In this document: positions 1 to 5,894 of the stretch, piece after piece | Position numbering within the stretch: the stretch's first letter is position 1 | Layout: every line of letters begins with the position of its first letter | Assembly: GCA_049973735.1 (NCBI GenBank) | Contig: JBMFJL010000036.1 | Span: 1 to 5,894, forward strand | Length of the DNA stretch: 5,894 nucleotides | Direction of reading: 5' to 3' | DNA from: Nanopusillaceae archaeon | Lineage (GTDB): Archaea; Nanobdellota; Nanobdellia; Nanobdellales; Nanobdellaceae | Notes under the pieces: model-generated | What the model was told of the DNA's origin: nothing | Database searches by the model: none | The model's input: the letters and a program-made list of their open reading frames with translations, nothing else | Translations under genes and position numbers: made by a program

Positions 1-64
1 CACACATCCTTCCAGCTTCTCTTCCCCTTAATTTTACACATACTCTACCAACTTGTAAGACCAT
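1..64 (-). CDS. rpl14e: 50S ribosomal protein L14e, N-terminal 21 codons (partial; continues beyond the left edge)
   Basis: The reverse complement of 1..64 reads ATG GTC TTA CAA GTT GGT AGA GTA TGT GTA AAA TTA AGG GGA AGA GAA GCT GGA AGG ATG TGT G, which is MVLQVGRVCVKLRGREAGRMC(V..). This matches the conserved N-terminal motif of archaeal L14e as I recall it (..VGRxCVKxxGREAGxxCV..). The + strand is unusually pyrimidine-rich here, so the - strand is purine-rich, as coding strands are elsewhere in this window. The ORF is too short to appear in the supplied track. Confidence 0.7.
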   Translation of the reverse strand, partial: MVLQVGRVCVKLRGREAGRMC

Positions 65-69
65 TTTTA

Positions 70-363
70 TTGATTAATAGTAAAAAATCTGTAGAAGAAT
101 TTAAATATCATGAGTATGTTAAAATGTGGAGAAAATTTACATGGGAAGAATTTGCAAATGGGTATCTAGAAAAGGTTAAAGAAAGAATTAAAAATGGTGA
201 TAAAACTGCAAAATGGGTAGTATATAATGTTTATAAAGCTATACTAGTCTTCTTGCATCCTATAATACCATTTGTTACCGAATATATATATCAAAAATTG
301 TATGGAGAAAAGAGTACTATACTAGAAGAAAAATTTGAAAATTTACTTAAAGCCTTCAGCTAG
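70..363 (+). CDS. Orphan ORF matching only the C-terminal anticodon-binding helical segment of a class Ia (ValRS-type) aminoacyl-tRNA synthetase; the catalytic body is absent at this locus (split-gene half or gene relic)
   Basis: The segment EFKYHEYVKMWRKFTWEEFANGYLEKVKERIK..AKWVVYNVYKAILVFLHPIIPFVTEYIYQKL follows the ValRS/IleRS C-terminal pattern (..F.W..FcD.YlE..K.Rl...a...ly.vl...l.LLhPfmPFitEEiwq.l). The start is uncertain: TTG at 70 lies only 5 nt from the divergent L14e ATG, and the first ATG is at 124 (80 aa). About 97 stop-free codons are unlikely by chance in DNA this AT-rich. No TATA-like box sits at the 24-nt spacing seen for other first genes here. A T6 run (372-377) follows the stop. 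Confidence 0.55.
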   Translation: MINSKKSVEEFKYHEYVKMWRKFTWEEFANGYLEKVKERIKNGDKTAKWVVYNVYKAILVFLHPIIPFVTEYIYQKLYGEKSTILEEKFENLLKAFS

Positions 364-1005
364 TTCTTTAATTTTTTCATAAAAATTAGGCGCTTTTGCT
401 ACTGCAGATGCAAGTAAAACCCCTTCTGCACCCAATTCAATTGCCCTTTTTACATCATCTTTATTACTTATTCCTGCTCCAACTAATAATTTTACTCTTG
501 GATTTGCTTCCTTTATCATTCTTACAGAGTTTACAATTATATCTGGTTTTGCTTTAGAAACCGAAATTCCAGTACCTATTAATTCTGGAGGCTCTATGGC
601 TATATAATCTGGATCTAATTTTGCTAGAGCAGAACCAACTAAATTATCATTAGCACATACAATGGTTTTTAATCCTAATTTTTTAGCTATCTCTATGATT
701 TTTTCTATTTCACTTATTTTTAATTGTCTTTCAGAATGATTGACCAAAGTTCCGACCGCACCGGCCTCTTTGACTGCTTCAGGTAGTATATGACCAGTAA
801 ATGCACCAGACTCTATTGGATCGATATGTTGAGCAAAGATTTTAACTCTTTTAGCTCTCTGAGACAATAAATATATATCAGTAAACTGTGGCGCAATAAC
901 TATTTCTATTCCATATTCGCTAACAACCCTTTCTGCAGCTTCTAATAATTCCAATCCCTTTTTTCCTATTGTTTCTTTATATGCTTTCAGATTTATAACT
1001 AGCAT
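343..1005 (-). CDS. tpiA: Triosephosphate isomerase, short (~220 aa) archaeal type
   Basis: The 220-aa ORF aligns end to end, from memory, with archaeal TIMs such as the Methanocaldococcus enzyme. Catalytic positions are present: Lys in INLKAY, His in VNHSE, Glu in AIEPPELIGTG. The GAGIS phosphate-binding loop and the C-terminal GVLLASAV motif are also there. Confidence 0.95.
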   Translation of the reverse strand: MLVINLKAYKETIGKKGLELLEAAERVVSEYGIEIVIAPQFTDIYLLSQRAKRVKIFAQHIDPIESGAFTGHILPEAVKEAGAVGTLVNHSERQLKISEIEKIIEIAKKLGLKTIVCANDNLVGSALAKLDPDYIAIEPPELIGTGISVSKAKPDIIVNSVRMIKEANPRVKLLVGAGISNKDDVKRAIELGAEGVLLASAVAKAPNFYEKIKELAEGFK

Positions 1006-1028
1006 AAAATAATAATATGACCTTCTTT

Positions 1029-1050
1029 ATTTATAAAATATTTATAAAAT
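1029..1050. promoter_or_regulatory. Perfect tandem duplication ATTTATAAAAT x2, each copy holding a palindromic TATA-box-like 8-mer TTTATAAA; candidate paired promoters for divergent tpiA and the ATPase gene
   Basis: Units 1029-1039 and 1040-1050 are identical. TTTATAAA (1030-1037 and 1041-1048) is its own reverse complement. The left 8-mer is separated by exactly 24 nt (1006-1029) from the tpiA ATG (A at 1005, - strand). The right 8-mer is separated by exactly 24 nt (1049-1072) from the ATPase ATG (1073). That spacing fits archaeal TATA-to-TSS distances combined with leaderless mRNAs. Confidence 0.5.
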
Positions 1051-1072
1051 TCTCAGACCATAACTCGTTATA

Positions 1073-3640
1073 ATGTGGCATTCTTTACCGATCGAAGAAG
1101 TATTAAGAAGACTTAATACATCTTTAAATGGTCTAACCGATGAAGAAGTAAAAAATAGATTAAAAATATATGGAAAAAATGAAATAAAATTAAAAGAGGA
1201 ATCATTAATATTTAAAATTATTGAAATTATAAAAAATCCTTTTTTATTATTATTTATATTTGCAGATATAATATCATTTATTTTTCAAGGGTTTATAGAT
1301 GGAATTGCTATTTTCATGTTTCTATTACTATACATTATCTTTGACCTAATAAATGAAAGAAGATACAGTAAAATAATAAAATCTTTGATGAAAAGCATAG
1401 AAAAAGATGTAATGGTTGTAAGAAATGGGACAATAACACATGTAAAGGCTTCAGAAATTGTGCCTGGTGACATAATAATACTTAGGTATGGAGAATTTGT
1501 ACCTGCAGACATTAGGATTATAGAGGAAAAAGATTTGGAAGTTGATGAAAGTGCATTGACCGGAGAAAGCGATCCTGTAAGAAAAAAAGTAGACATAGTA
1601 TCTACAAATGCACCGGTAAAGGATAGAATAAATATGCTTTTTTTCGGAACACATATTGTAAGAGGCTATTGCAAAGGAGTTGTTGTAGCTACAGGAAACA
1701 ATACTTATTATGGAAGTATATATAAGAATTTAGAAAAAGAGAAAAGAGAGAAAACTTTATTACAGATTGAATTAGAAAAGTTCTCTGTTTATATGACTGT
1801 AATTGTAGTTATAATAATGATAATTTCTGCAATTTATATTTATATATTTAATATACTACCATTAAACCAATTGCTAATATTTGTTGTAGCAATTGGAGTA
1901 CTTGTAATTCCAGAAGGTTTGCCTGCAGCCCTAACACTAATATATGCCCTTAGTGTAGATAAATTAAGAAGAGAAAATATATTTGTCAAAAATCCAAATA
2001 TATTAGAGGATTTGGGTAATGTTGACACAGTAATTCTAGACAAAACAGGAACTTTATCATATAATTATATAGATTTAAAGGGCTTTTATTTCAATGGAAA
2101 AATTTACAAAGTAAAATATGAAGATAACAAGATAAAAATACTTAAAAAAGATAAAGAAGTTGATTTAAACGGTTTACAGGTATTTCTAACTTTTTTATAC
2201 AATTCTATTGATGATTACAGTTATGATATATATGAAAATGGTTTTGGAAACCCAATAAATCTAGCTATATATAGGGTAGGTAAACAATTAAACTTAAAAT
2301 TTTTAGAAAGAATAGATGTAAACTATTTTGATTCTTATAGAAAAAGATCATCAGTCATAGTAAATTATGAAGGTAAAAAATACTCTATAGTAAAAGGTTC
2401 TGTAGATTCGATCATAAAAATATCTAAATATATATATTTAGATAATGAAATAAAAGAAATTAACAAAAATATAGACAAAATAAAAAACATAACTGAAAAA
2501 TATAGCAAAAAAGGATTTAAAATATTGGCTTTAGGCATAAAAATCCTAGATAATGATAACGATGTAGAAAAAGATGTAATTTTTTATGGAATTATATTGC
2601 TCAAAGAGAAAATTAGGAAAGGTGTCAAGAATTACATTGATTTTCTAAAGTTTTTAAATTTAAATATTTATATAGTTACTGGTGATAATAGGGAGAATAC
2701 GGAAAATTTGCTTAAAATTTTGAAGCTTAATTTTAAAGTAAAAGATGCTAGAGAAATAAAAAAACTTAATGATGAAGAATTATATAAATTGTTAAAAAAC
2801 TATAATGCAATCGTAAATGCAGATCCTGAAGATAAGTATAGAATAGTAAAAGTATTAAAGAAAAAGGGACATAGAGTCTTGTTCGTTGGTGATGGTATAA
2901 ATGATTCTATAGCAATGAAAATATCAAATGTTGGCGTATCTTTTTACAATGCCGCAGATATAACTAAAGATTCTGCAAATGTATTATTATTAGATGAAGG
3001 AATAGAGGCAATTGTAGAATTGATAAAGGAGGGAAAGAGGATTATATATAGCCTAAAAACTTATATAGTAACAGTATTGTCTGCTATTATTGGTATATTT
3101 TTATTTATGGTAATAGGATTCTTCGTATATAAGCAAATATTCTTAGAATCTCTACAGCTATTGTTATTAAATTTGGTTGCAGAAACTATATTTTCAATAA
3201 CTATCAATGTATCGGAAGTAAAAGATGAAAAAATGTATAAACAATTAGATAATCGACTATTTGACAAAAATATAATCTATAATTTCATTAGAAATGCTAT
3301 TTTCATAGGATTAAACAGTGTGATAGTCGCATTAGCAACATTTAATAATGTTTATACTATCATGTTATTCTTAATTGTTTCTCAAGCTATATTATTAATG
3401 TATTACGAAAAGAAATTTAATTTATCTATAACTTCAAGCAAACAATATTATATTTCTATATTCCTATCCGTTATGATAATATCTATATTCTTATTACCAT
3501 ATTTAAGAGATCTTATAGGATTTGTCATACCAGCTATGATAGATATTTCCGTATTTGTCATCGTTGCCCTATATATGTATGCAATATTTGAAATATTATA
3601 TAGAGTAGAAAAATCAGCGGTATCTGAACATCTTCATTAA
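1073..3640 (+). CDS. P-type cation-transporting ATPase (P2/P3-like, about 10 predicted TM helices); transported ion unresolved
   Basis: The N-terminus is of the Cation_ATPase_N type (HSLPIEEVLRRLNTSLNGLTDEEVKNRLKIYGKNEI). All core motifs are present: A-domain LTGESDPV, M4 IPEGLPAALT, phosphorylation site ILDKTGTLS, N-domain FDSYRKRSSV and VKGS, then IVTGDN, ADPEDKYRIV and VGDGINDSIAMK. Hydrophobic segments fit M1-M10. Confidence 0.93.
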   Translation: MWHSLPIEEVLRRLNTSLNGLTDEEVKNRLKIYGKNEIKLKEESLIFKIIEIIKNPFLLLFIFADIISFIFQGFIDGIAIFMFLLLYIIFDLINERRYSKIIKSLMKSIEKDVMVVRNGTITHVKASEIVPGDIIILRYGEFVPADIRIIEEKDLEVDESALTGESDPVRKKVDIVSTNAPVKDRINMLFFGTHIVRGYCKGVVVATGNNTYYGSIYKNLEKEKREKTLLQIELEKFSVYMTVIVVIIMIISAIYIYIFNILPLNQLLIFVVAIGVLVIPEGLPAALTLIYALSVDKLRRENIFVKNPNILEDLGNVDTVILDKTGTLSYNYIDLKGFYFNGKIYKVKYEDNKIKILKKDKEVDLNGLQVFLTFLYNSIDDYSYDIYENGFGNPINLAIYRVGKQLNLKFLERIDVNYFDSYRKRSSVIVNYEGKKYSIVKGSVDSIIKISKYIYLDNEIKEINKNIDKIKNITEKYSKKGFKILALGIKILDNDNDVEKDVIFYGIILLKEKIRKGVKNYIDFLKFLNLNIYIVTGDNRENTENLLKILKLNFKVKDAREIKKLNDEELYKLLKNYNAIVNADPEDKYRIVKVLKKKGHRVLFVGDGINDSIAMKISNVGVSFYNAADITKDSANVLLLDEGIEAIVELIKEGKRIIYSLKTYIVTVLSAIIGIFLFMVIGFFVYKQIFLESLQLLLLNLVAETIFSITINVSEVKDEKMYKQLDNRLFDKNIIYNFIRNAIFIGLNSVIVALATFNNVYTIMLFLIVSQAILLMYYEKKFNLSITSSKQYYISIFLSVMIISIFLLPYLRDLIGFVIPAMIDISVFVIVALYMYAIFEILYRVEKSAVSEHLH

Positions 3641-3664
3641 TCAGGAATCTCTGACCTTCATCAT
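3614..3664 (-). ncRNA. Candidate box C/D sRNA (2'-O-methylation guide RNA), antisense to the last 9 codons and stop codon of the ATPase gene and extending into the intergenic spacer
   Basis: The - strand reads AUGAUGA (C, 3664-3658), AGGUCAGAGAUUC (13 nt), CUGA (D', 3644-3641), UUA, AUGAAGA (C' with one mismatch, 3637-3631), UGUUCAGAUACCG (13 nt), CUGA (D, 3617-3614). The total is 51 nt with two equal spacers. It is flanked by AAAAA (3669-3665) and UUUUU (3613-3609), which could form a terminal stem; the U5 could also act as a terminator. An A/T-only block (3686-3698) lies about 25-30 nt upstream on the - strand. I checked every other TGATGA/TCATCA site in the window, and none has a CUGA at guide spacing. 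Confidence 0.6.
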
Positions 3665-3680
3665 TTTTTATTAATTTTAT
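3664..3680 (+). promoter_or_regulatory. A/T block acting as a candidate TATA element for the GT2 gene; its T6 run (3664-3669) is also a candidate oligo-T terminator for the ATPase gene
   Basis: TTTTTTATTAATTTTAT ends about 17-24 nt upstream of the GT2 ATG (3697). TTTATTAA at 3667-3674 is 22 nt from the ATG, close to the 24-nt spacing at the tpiA/ATPase promoters. The T6 run starts 24 nt after the ATPase stop. This is weak evidence given the AT-rich background. Confidence 0.35.
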
Positions 3681-3696
3681 CTGACATATTTTTTAT

Positions 3697-4821
3697 ATGT
3701 ATAATAAAGTATCTTTTATATTTCCTATTTATAAAGATAGTGAAGCTATAGAAGATAATATTAAAAGAATATTTGAAGATAATTACCCAAACGATTTAAA
3801 AGAAATTATAGTTGCTGTGGACGTACCTACAGAAAATTTCATGGAAAAAATCAAAAAAATAAAAAGCAAATATAAAAATGTAAAATTTATAATATCGAAA
3901 GAAAGGAGGGGAAAAGTTGCTGCAACTAATGATGCTGTAAAATATTCTACTGGCGACATATTAGTTTTTATTGATGCAGACGCCTCTATAGTACATATAG
4001 ATTTACAATCTTTAGTAAAAGAAGTAAATGAATATGGTTTAGTAGAATTTTACAAAGATATGGAAAGAAAAGGGATAATAGGTAATATGCTTCATCTAGA
4101 GTATTCTATGTATTATGACATATTATCTATCATAAATAATAAGAGAAAAAAATCTTTAGGTGTCAATGGAGCTGGTTTTTCTGTTAAGAGAGAGATATTT
4201 GAAAAAGTTGGGGGATTTACTAGAGTCTATGTAGAAGATTTAGACTTTGCCATTAAGGCTCAAAAAGCAGGAAGTAAATATTATTTATCTAAATCTGTAA
4301 TTTTAAAAATAAAGCCGTTAGAAACTTTAAAACAGTTAATAGATCAAAAAAAGAGATGGACTTTCGGTGCTATAGAATTTGCTTTAAATCATTTTGACTT
4401 TTTTATTAAATATTTTATTGAAGATCCATTTTCTAGTATGGTTTTGATATTAATATTCTTTTTTCCATACATTTTGTTTTTCTATATATACTTCTTAATC
4501 CCATTATCTTATATATATGATATTGCAATAAAATTATACGAAAATTTTTTAGCTAATATAAATATAATATATGTTGCGCTAGTCAATCCTTTCTCTTTCT
4601 ATCAATTTTTCTCTGCAATTTATCTCACAATACTTTATATTGTAATATCTACCACTTATACTTTTTTACTATTTTCCATCGCCAAGAAAAAATTATATAA
4701 CCCGATATACTTTTTCATCTTATCCGTATTCTATGTACCTTTGTATGAGATAATCTTTATATACGTTTTGATATATTATGTTTTATTCGAAATGCCTCCA
4801 AAGATGAACTGGAAGGTCTAA
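3697..4821 (+). CDS. Membrane-integrated family-2 glycosyltransferase with the processive-type D,D,D,Q-x-x-R-W signature and a C-terminal multi-TM domain
   Basis: The N-terminus has a GT-A fold signature (VSFIFPIYKDSEAIEDNIKRI..YPNDLKEIIVAVD, then GKVAATNDAVKYSTGDILVFIDADA with the DxD motif). This is followed by GAGFSVKREIFEKVGGF, VEDLDFAIKA and QKKRWTFG (QxxRW). The last ~140 aa are strongly hydrophobic, about 4-5 TM segments. An in-frame TGA at 3682-3684 makes 3697 the first possible ATG. Confidence 0.9.
   Translation: MYNKVSFIFPIYKDSEAIEDNIKRIFEDNYPNDLKEIIVAVDVPTENFMEKIKKIKSKYKNVKFIISKERRGKVAATNDAVKYSTGDILVFIDADASIVHIDLQSLVKEVNEYGLVEFYKDMERKGIIGNMLHLEYSMYYDILSIINNKRKKSLGVNGAGFSVKREIFEKVGGFTRVYVEDLDFAIKAQKAGSKYYLSKSVILKIKPLETLKQLIDQKKRWTFGAIEFALNHFDFFIKYFIEDPFSSMVLILIFFFPYILFFYIYFLIPLSYIYDIAIKLYENFLANINIIYVALVNPFSFYQFFSAIYLTILYIVISTTYTFLLFSIAKKKLYNPIYFFILSVFYVPLYEIIFIYVLIYYVLFEMPPKMNWKV
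4811..4817 (+). promoter_or_regulatory. Shine-Dalgarno-like GGAAGGT upstream of the RNase Z start
   Basis: GGAAGGT partially matches the GGAGGT-type SD. It lies 3 nt before ATG 4821 and 6 nt before ATG 4824. This fits a distal operon gene using an SD while first genes look leaderless. The better spacing suggests the second ATG (4824) may be the real start. Confidence 0.4.
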
Positions 4822-5795
4822 TGATGAAACTATATATATTAGGAACAGCTTCTGCATTTCCAACAAAAAAGAGAAATCACCCTGGAATATTTATGAAATA
4901 TTTAGACAAAGGTATATTGTTTGATGCTGGCGAAAATATACAAAGACAAATGAGAATTGCAGGTTTATCTCCTACAGATATTGATATAATATTAATAACA
5001 CATTGGCATGGAGATCATATGCTAGGATTGCCTGGAATCTTATTTAGCTTATCCAATATGGAATATAAAAGAGAACTAAATATTATACTACCCAGAGAAA
5101 ACTTTGAAGATTTTTATAAATTAATGGACGGATTGAATATTCCGATTGAATTCAATATAAATTTAATAGAGGCAAAAAACGGATTGATATATGAAGATGA
5201 TAAATTCGAAATATATGGTATAGAGACTAGACATTCTGTAAAATCTTTTTCTTATTACTTTAAAGAGAAAGAATATATAAAAATAGATAAAGAAAAATTA
5301 AGATATTACAATTTATCTGTAAATCAAATAAAGAAAATAAAAAAAGGAGAAAAAATCTTTTATAATGGAAAAGAAATTGATTTCAATGATATTGGATATA
5401 TTAGAAAGGGTATAAAGATCTCATACATAACGGATACGATATTTTTTGAAGATCTAATAAAATTTGCTGAAAATAGTACTATTCTAATATGCGAATCTAC
5501 ATTTTTCTTCGATCCAGAAAAAGCTAAAGAACATTACCATATGGACTTTACAGAAGTTTTAAAGTTATATTTAGAAAGTAAAAGTAAAATATTGCTATTG
5601 ACTCATTTTAGCCAAAGATATGAAGAAGAACTGGATAAAATAAAAAAGGATATAGAGGAAAAATATGATGATGTATATATATTAAATGACTTCGATAGGA
5701 TAGAAATAGAAAAAAACATTATAAGTTTATACTTATCTAATAAATTAGTTAAATATAAATTTGATGAAAAAACTGGTTATGTTTTAAGAATATAG
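4821..5795 (+). CDS. rnz: Ribonuclease Z (tRNA 3' endonuclease), metallo-beta-lactamase fold, short form
   Basis: The N-terminus KLYILGTASAFPTKKRNHPGIFMKY..GILFDAGENIQRQM..IDIILITHWHGDHMLGLPGILFS matches the RNase Z consensus, including HxHxDH. Downstream metal ligands are plausible: TRHSV, ISYITDT, EHYHMDF and LLLTHFSQRY. The start overlaps the GT2 stop (TAATG, 4819-4823). Confidence 0.93.
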   Translation: MMKLYILGTASAFPTKKRNHPGIFMKYLDKGILFDAGENIQRQMRIAGLSPTDIDIILITHWHGDHMLGLPGILFSLSNMEYKRELNIILPRENFEDFYKLMDGLNIPIEFNINLIEAKNGLIYEDDKFEIYGIETRHSVKSFSYYFKEKEYIKIDKEKLRYYNLSVNQIKKIKKGEKIFYNGKEIDFNDIGYIRKGIKISYITDTIFFEDLIKFAENSTILICESTFFFDPEKAKEHYHMDFTEVLKLYLESKSKILLLTHFSQRYEEELDKIKKDIEEKYDDVYILNDFDRIEIEKNIISLYLSNKLVKYKFDEKTGYVLRI

Positions 5796-5894
5796 CAATT
5801 CTTCGAGTTCTCTTTTTAGTTCTTCTAACTCTCTGGAAATTTCATCCAATTCTTTCTTTACATTTTCTTTGATATCTTTTTGCTCAGCATCTTC
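5784..5894 (-). CDS. C-terminal 36 codons of an unidentified, highly charged coiled-coil-like protein (partial; start lies beyond the right edge)
   Basis: The reverse complement from 5894 reads EDAEQKDIKENVKKELDEISRELEELKRELEELLYS, followed by TAA (5786-5784). The other two - strand frames hit stops within about 12 codons. The - strand is purine-rich here, like other coding strands in the window. No family assignment is possible from 36 residues. Confidence 0.4.
   Translation of the reverse strand, partial: EDAEQKDIKENVKKELDEISRELEELKRELEELLYS

Follow-up and report, generated by a model that had tools for sequence, protein, structure and literature searches.

The C-terminal ValRS fragment beside an L14e start in a Nanopusillaceae genome bin: probably the end of an ordinary valS at a chimeric contig tip

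How does the C-terminal part of a ValRS come to lie directly beside the divergent start of a gene for ribosomal protein L14e in a nanoarchaeal genome? The first-pass annotation, made from the letters alone, had left three answers side by side, a split gene, a relic and an assembly junction. The stretch of DNA analysed here (the window) is the entire contig C36 of the bin G000, 5,894 bp in length; nt 1 is therefore a contig end. The bin belongs to the Nanopusillaceae and comprises 786 kb in 199 contigs, is 86% complete and has a G+C content of 27%. Its closest relative is the genome G013, to which it has a mean identity of 76% and a maximum of 88.8% (long alignments, 441 kb).

The plus-strand frame of interest is open from nt 1 through the TAG at 361-363 and contains ORF 70-363. 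The product of 70-360 matched Pfam Anticodon_1 (PF08264) at positions 16-105 of 148 with an E value of 2e-20 and 73.6 bits against a cut-off of 25.1, and a genome-wide profile scan of the bin returned the same PF08264 match as the ORF product alone. Among the NCBIfam models the valS equivalogs scored best (TIGR00422 / NF009687, E 4e-17 to 4e-16), ahead of ileS (2e-7) and leuS (4e-5). Together with 79% identity to an annotated 742-aa ValRS this assigns the fragment specifically to ValRS. The proposal that ORF 70-363 encodes a ValRS-type anticodon-binding end was thus borne out by the profile search. With 61.5 bits against a cut-off of 612 the fragment stays far below the full-length valS equivalog score, and so does a second valS part of the bin, located on contig C2 (321 bits against 738). 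Both scores are low because contig ends cut the gene and its middle 316 codons are unassembled.

When longer proteins were searched, about 20 ValRS from Nanopusillaceae, 742-746 aa in length, were retrieved. Among them P0001, the 742-aa contiguous ValRS of G013 (NCBI MGC9133213.1), matched best; window 79-360 shares with it 79% identity over residues 649-742 (94 residues) and an identical stop position. Neither of the two start codons that could be considered looks like the start of a gene: TTG 70-72 is the reverse complement of the final CAA codon of L34e, and ATG 124 is an internal ValRS position, where most relatives have Leu or Ile and one (P0004) has Lys. The ORF beginning at TTG 70 was created accidentally by the join and does not represent a separately expressed anticodon-binding protein. 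Its stop-free frame had been taken as a sign of selection on the fragment or of recent truncation; it is explained if the fragment is the genuine 3' terminus of an intact gene. This 3' end occupies 82-363 on the plus strand (about 93 codons plus the TAG stop at 361-363) and corresponds to residues 650-742 of the 742-aa ValRS and to Anticodon_1 profile positions 15-105.

The sequence to the left of the ValRS part has a different affiliation. The minus strand of nt 64-2 translates to MVLQVGRVCVKLRGREAGRMC, the first 21 residues of L14e, which confirms the L14e start reported for the opposite strand; the contig end truncates this gene. At the nucleotide level positions 1-64 (minus strand), holding the first 21 codons of L14e plus 1 nt, are identical to L14e on G013:C4 at 64/64 nt, and to the bin's own L14e on contig C97 at 52/64. 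Positions 65-81 on the same strand comprise two spacer nucleotides (65-66), the stop codon of L34e (TAA, 67-69) and the four final codons of that gene, T-I-N-Q (70-81). They match the G013:C4 sequence upstream of L14e at 17/17 nt, and the translation of L34e in G013 ends in ...KLKELTINQ*. Window 1-81 is thus identical to the L34e end and L14e start of G013:C4 at 81/81 nt. The earlier statement that a gene boundary marks the end of the synthetase homology has to be corrected, since the DNA of the ribosomal locus reaches nt 81 and includes the L34e stop, and the junction at 81/82 lies inside L34e.

The bin possesses its own L34e-L14e pair on C97, in the canonical SecY...L34e-L14e context and with 82% identity to the stub (window 1-67). 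The 17 relatives with a match contain L14e exactly once each. In 15 of the 16 loci read (C97 and 15 relatives; the sequence was translated as L34e for C97 and G013 only) the 46 nt upstream of L14e look like a gene end with a stop just before the ATG; the sixteenth, in G001, has no gene end there. As judged from these sequence comparisons, window 1-81 is in all likelihood DNA of a G013-like sister species that was joined to the contig tip and is alien to the valS locus of the bin.

The transition between the two parts is abrupt and can be placed at 79-84. Identity to the L34e/L14e locus of G013 ends at 81, and in-frame ValRS homology begins with AGT AAA (79-84), which encodes Ser-Lys and corresponds to P0001 residues 649-650. 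AGT(A)AA is a short microhomology common to both sources with a visible length of 3-6 nt. A longer microhomology between L14e antisense and valS (AAxTTGTxAGA..AT in a MAFFT alignment) was also considered; the two sides are offset by 5 nt in register, and it is probably due to chance. In BLAST searches window 1-84 mapped to G013:C4:65628-65711 (99%) and window 83-138 to G013:C5 (81%), so that the sides of the junction are not adjacent in the reference. In N. acidilobi L34e/L14e are Nps_03020/03025 and ValRS is Nps_02455 (PMC4935971). Against G013 the identity drops from 81/81 in the stub to 81% locally and to 72% for the remainder of C36. At the junction L34e is cut so that only its last four codons and the stop are left, and the ValRS is cut 14 residues into the Anticodon_1 domain (residues 635-735 in P0001), within the first helix; the stub duplicates L14e, a single-copy gene that is already present in its proper context on C97. 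The two sides of the junction differ in origin, because the 81/81 identity of the stub contrasts with the genome background of 76% and because they map to separate reference contigs.

Where, then, is the rest of the ValRS? Contig C2 encodes residues 1-332 on its minus strand (nt 997-2), with 85% identity to P0001 residues 1-332, and the frame is still open, with no stop codon, where the contig ends at residue 332. The observation that no Rossmann body lies upstream of the fragment is therefore right for the window and wrong for the genome: nt 1 is a contig end, and the N-terminal 332 residues are on C2. A scan of the whole genome had been suggested to find either a ValRS ORF ending just before this segment or a full-length ValRS elsewhere. 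It did find the N-terminal part of valS, cut at residue 332 and not just before the segment, and no full-length ValRS. A tblastn search with P0001 and P0003 for a middle piece or a second valS in the bin returned only C2, C36 and the IleRS/LeuRS/CysRS paralogues. IleRS (C5) and LeuRS (C1) of the bin are complete and separate from the valS pieces.

The arrangement in G013 accounts for both pieces. Colinear matches to G013:C5, on which valS lies at 43546-45771, were obtained for C2 nt 9-8260 (reversed) and for window 83-5866 (G013:C5:45493-51273), and the gap of 958 bp between the two fits the absent ValRS residues 333-648 (316 codons). Downstream of valS the window contains tpiA for triosephosphate isomerase (343-1005, minus strand; Pfam TIM, E 1.4e-44), which is convergent with valS. 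It is followed on the plus strand by genes with Pfam matches for a P-type cation ATPase (1073-3640), a GT2 glycosyltransferase (3697-4821) and a metallo-beta-lactamase-fold (MBL) hydrolase (4821-5795). This block (1073-5795) is colinear with G013:C5 at 72% identity, the value also found for C36 apart from the stub. In the cultured Nanopusillus acidilobi the gene table lists RpoD, a membrane protein, ValRS, TIM, a cation ATPase, a glycosyltransferase and an MBL hydrolase (PMC4935971), a gene order that matches C2 followed by C36. The loci are Nps_02455 for ValRS, Nps_02460 for TIM and Nps_02465 to Nps_02475 for the ATPase, glycosyltransferase and hydrolase, and the ValRS was detected in the proteome (PMC4935971). 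The fragment is thus, very probably, the normal 3' end of an ordinary valS that is cut by an assembly gap.

Some details of the contig may be mentioned in passing. The convergent 3' ends of valS and tpiA share 21 nt (343-363), with the valS stop at 361-363 and the tpiA stop at 343-345. At window 4818-4824 the GT2 stop overlaps the start of the hydrolase gene in an ATGA-type coupling at 4821. A partial gene on the minus strand (5784-5894) lies at the right contig edge and is convergent on the hydrolase gene.

Among the 16 relatives with a match, closed genomes included, 13 carry valS as a single frame of 744-770 aa. The remaining three are G015 with a frameshift, G004 with a frame break near the 3' end, and G011, where the match is cut by a contig start. 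In G015 the frame breaks at about residue 537 (G015:C1:66000-74000, segment nt 4081-4086). The resulting frame of 207 aa was considered as a conserved separate C-terminal gene; this was rejected, as the frame results from the frameshift and the gene is otherwise colinear. In G004, a single-contig genome, the break (G004:C1:~427748-427809) leaves frames of 725 and 57 aa. Both breaks may be either sequencing errors or real lesions.

From these comparisons we favor, at a probability of roughly 0.9, the interpretation that the locus combines a chimeric contig end with an assembly gap and hence is an artefact of the assembly rather than a split gene, relic or paralogue. Of the three answers left open at the outset, the assembly junction would be the one that stands, whereas the split gene and the relic fall. 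The true order in the genome would most likely be rpoD, a small membrane gene, valS (about 742 codons), the convergent tpiA, the P-type ATPase, GT2 and the MBL hydrolase. Two related Nanopusillaceae populations would have been present in the same data, and about 950 bp of the valS interior would have been lost in assembly. As a result the 5' third of valS would end C2, and its last approximately 93 codons would begin the native part of C36. The tip of C36 would then have been falsely extended, in inverted orientation, into the L34e-L14e junction of the sister species at the A-rich microhomology (AGT/AGTAAA, nt 79-84). In assemblies of mixed populations, be it from metagenomes or single cells, false de Bruijn-graph links arise at short shared k-mers, and inverted MDA chimeras arise at microhomology. 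The misjoin could accordingly be due to a false link in the assembly graph or to a chimeric amplification or read product.

A real rearrangement would bring the same sequences together. The end of L34e and the start of L14e of a sister species, perhaps with more of that locus, would have recombined into valS and left its 3' part as a recent relic. The join is present in the deposited contig, the 100% identity to G013 would suit a very recent transfer, and nanoarchaeal genomes are rearranged and contain broken genes (PMC4935971). However, the event would inactivate the only valS of the bin, an essential gene. It would also require the loss of 316 codons, yet the synteny and spacing of C2 and C36 agree exactly with G013. 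Decay is not seen in the remnant, which has 79% amino-acid identity, a stop-free frame and an unchanged stop position, and the join is located exactly at the contig tip. No other valS exists in the bin and the fragment occupies the syntenic valS position in front of tpiA, which also speaks against its being a relic or a paralogue. Taken together, these points make a rearrangement quite unlikely. Alternatively the stub might belong to a second, genuine L14e paralogue lying divergently beside the valS 3' part, as the L14e start and the open frame on the minus strand would allow. This is highly improbable: a single L14e was found in all 17 relatives with a match, the stub includes the last four codons of L34e and hence is a cut-out of an L34e-L14e locus and no free-standing gene, and 81/81 identity to another species against a background of 76% is unlike a paralogue.

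In favor of a split gene, Nanoarchaeota do have GatE, reverse gyrase, RpoB and Lhr encoded by split genes (PMC4935971). The catalytic body and the C-terminal anticodon-binding piece of ValRS would then be separate genes whose products assemble after translation. The fragment is stop-free and conserved, and the ValRS part of a public ORF, P0002, begins no more than a few codons from the break in C36. Yet the sole upstream start, TTG 70, lies inside DNA identical to L34e of another species, so that the C-terminal part has no start of its own outside foreign DNA, and ATG 124 is not conserved. The first helix of the anticodon domain would be divided by the break. It is the contig end that terminates the N-terminal part at residue 332, without a stop, and 316 residues would be unaccounted for. 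Among the relatives with a match 13 of 16 have the one frame of 744-770 aa, and of the others two have a frame break at another place in the gene and one has its match truncated by a contig start. ValRS is also outside the published core of split genes (PMC4935971), in line with the earlier remark that it is not among the known split genes of N. equitans: the list of split proteins for N. equitans, Nst1 and N. acidilobi does not contain it (PMC4935971, Supplementary Table 1). A trans-split ValRS is thus most unlikely.

P0002 is itself probably a chimera of MCM and ValRS. This protein of 203 aa (NCBI, on a contig of 2,090 bp) is an in-frame hybrid of an MCM C-terminus and a ValRS C-terminus joined at a shared 'ESKKY'. 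The MCM part comprises the lid and the winged-helix C-terminus and is 78% identical to the MCM on G000:C5; the ValRS part comprises about 90 C-terminal residues, and its break is within a few codons of that in C36. Probably the contig of P0002 is chimeric and belongs to another nanoarchaeal bin; it looks like an artefact similar to that in C36, at the same A-rich position. It is distinctly unlikely that real recombination between species disrupts valS in part of the population, or that P0002 marks the recurrence of a trans-split ValRS at this site.

Besides C36, only three contigs of the bin have G013-identical tips that map apart from the rest of the contig: C21 (1-35), C111 (4-116) and C170 (570-626). 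These tips are 98-100% identical to G013 DNA. The match of the C21 tip maps elsewhere than the neighboring sequence, in C111 and C170 the tip match is the sole strong match of the contig, and the stretch in C111 forms a dovetail overlap with the end of G013:C20 (its first 113 nt). These three may be further chimeric ends between populations, or mis-binned ends. In an Rfam search of the other G013-like tips no RNA family was found in C21, C111 and C170, and only a tRNA in C80. Systematic occurrence of G013-identical tips was rejected: most matches of at least 95% are tRNA genes or colinear conserved stretches (C80, C12). The 21-mers shared with G013 were not enriched at contig ends, where they touched 11 ends against about 15 by chance (a rough histogram estimate); therefore the bin is not riddled with such joins. 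A separate observation concerns a multi-copy family in G000:C144 229-583 and G000:C6:700-1350, with copies of 67-89% identity on G013 C1, the end of C2, C4, C25 and C30; a stretch of 190 nt in it matches the end of G013:C2 without a difference. A mobile element or a repeated gene family may be behind it.

For practical purposes, C2 and C36 are neighbors with about 950 bp of valS between them, which is useful for scaffolding the genome of the bin. More generally, gene fragments at contig tips can mimic nanoarchaeal split genes in fragmented bins with several related species, and caution is advised. In the present case artefact and biology were separated by the start of the window at a contig end, the synteny with the closest relative and the step in nucleotide identity across the junction.

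Compared with known split genes of Nanoarchaeota, the locus has in common the lineage and the fact that part of a large essential protein is apparently encoded alone. The split protein genes described are reverse gyrase, GatE, RpoB and Lhr, and AlaRS in N. equitans (PMC4935971 Supplementary Table 1). In true split genes both parts are complete ORFs with a start and a stop of their own, and the split sites are conserved across species. In contrast, the break in valS has neither a start nor a stop, is not conserved, and affects a protein that is absent from the list. With the ValRS genes of other Nanopusillaceae (P0001; N. acidilobi Nps_02455) valS of the bin shares the C-terminus, the stop position, the convergent tpiA, the ATPase-glycosyltransferase-MBL block and the N-terminal 332 residues. 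It differs from them in being present in two pieces on two contigs with about 316 codons unassembled, which is a difference of the assembly and not of biology. The locus also resembles chimeric contig ends in assemblies of mixed related populations, with which it shares the abrupt fall in identity to one reference genome, from 100% to about 76-81%, the location of the two sides on different reference contigs, and a join that is inverted, lies at the tip and coincides with a short microhomology.
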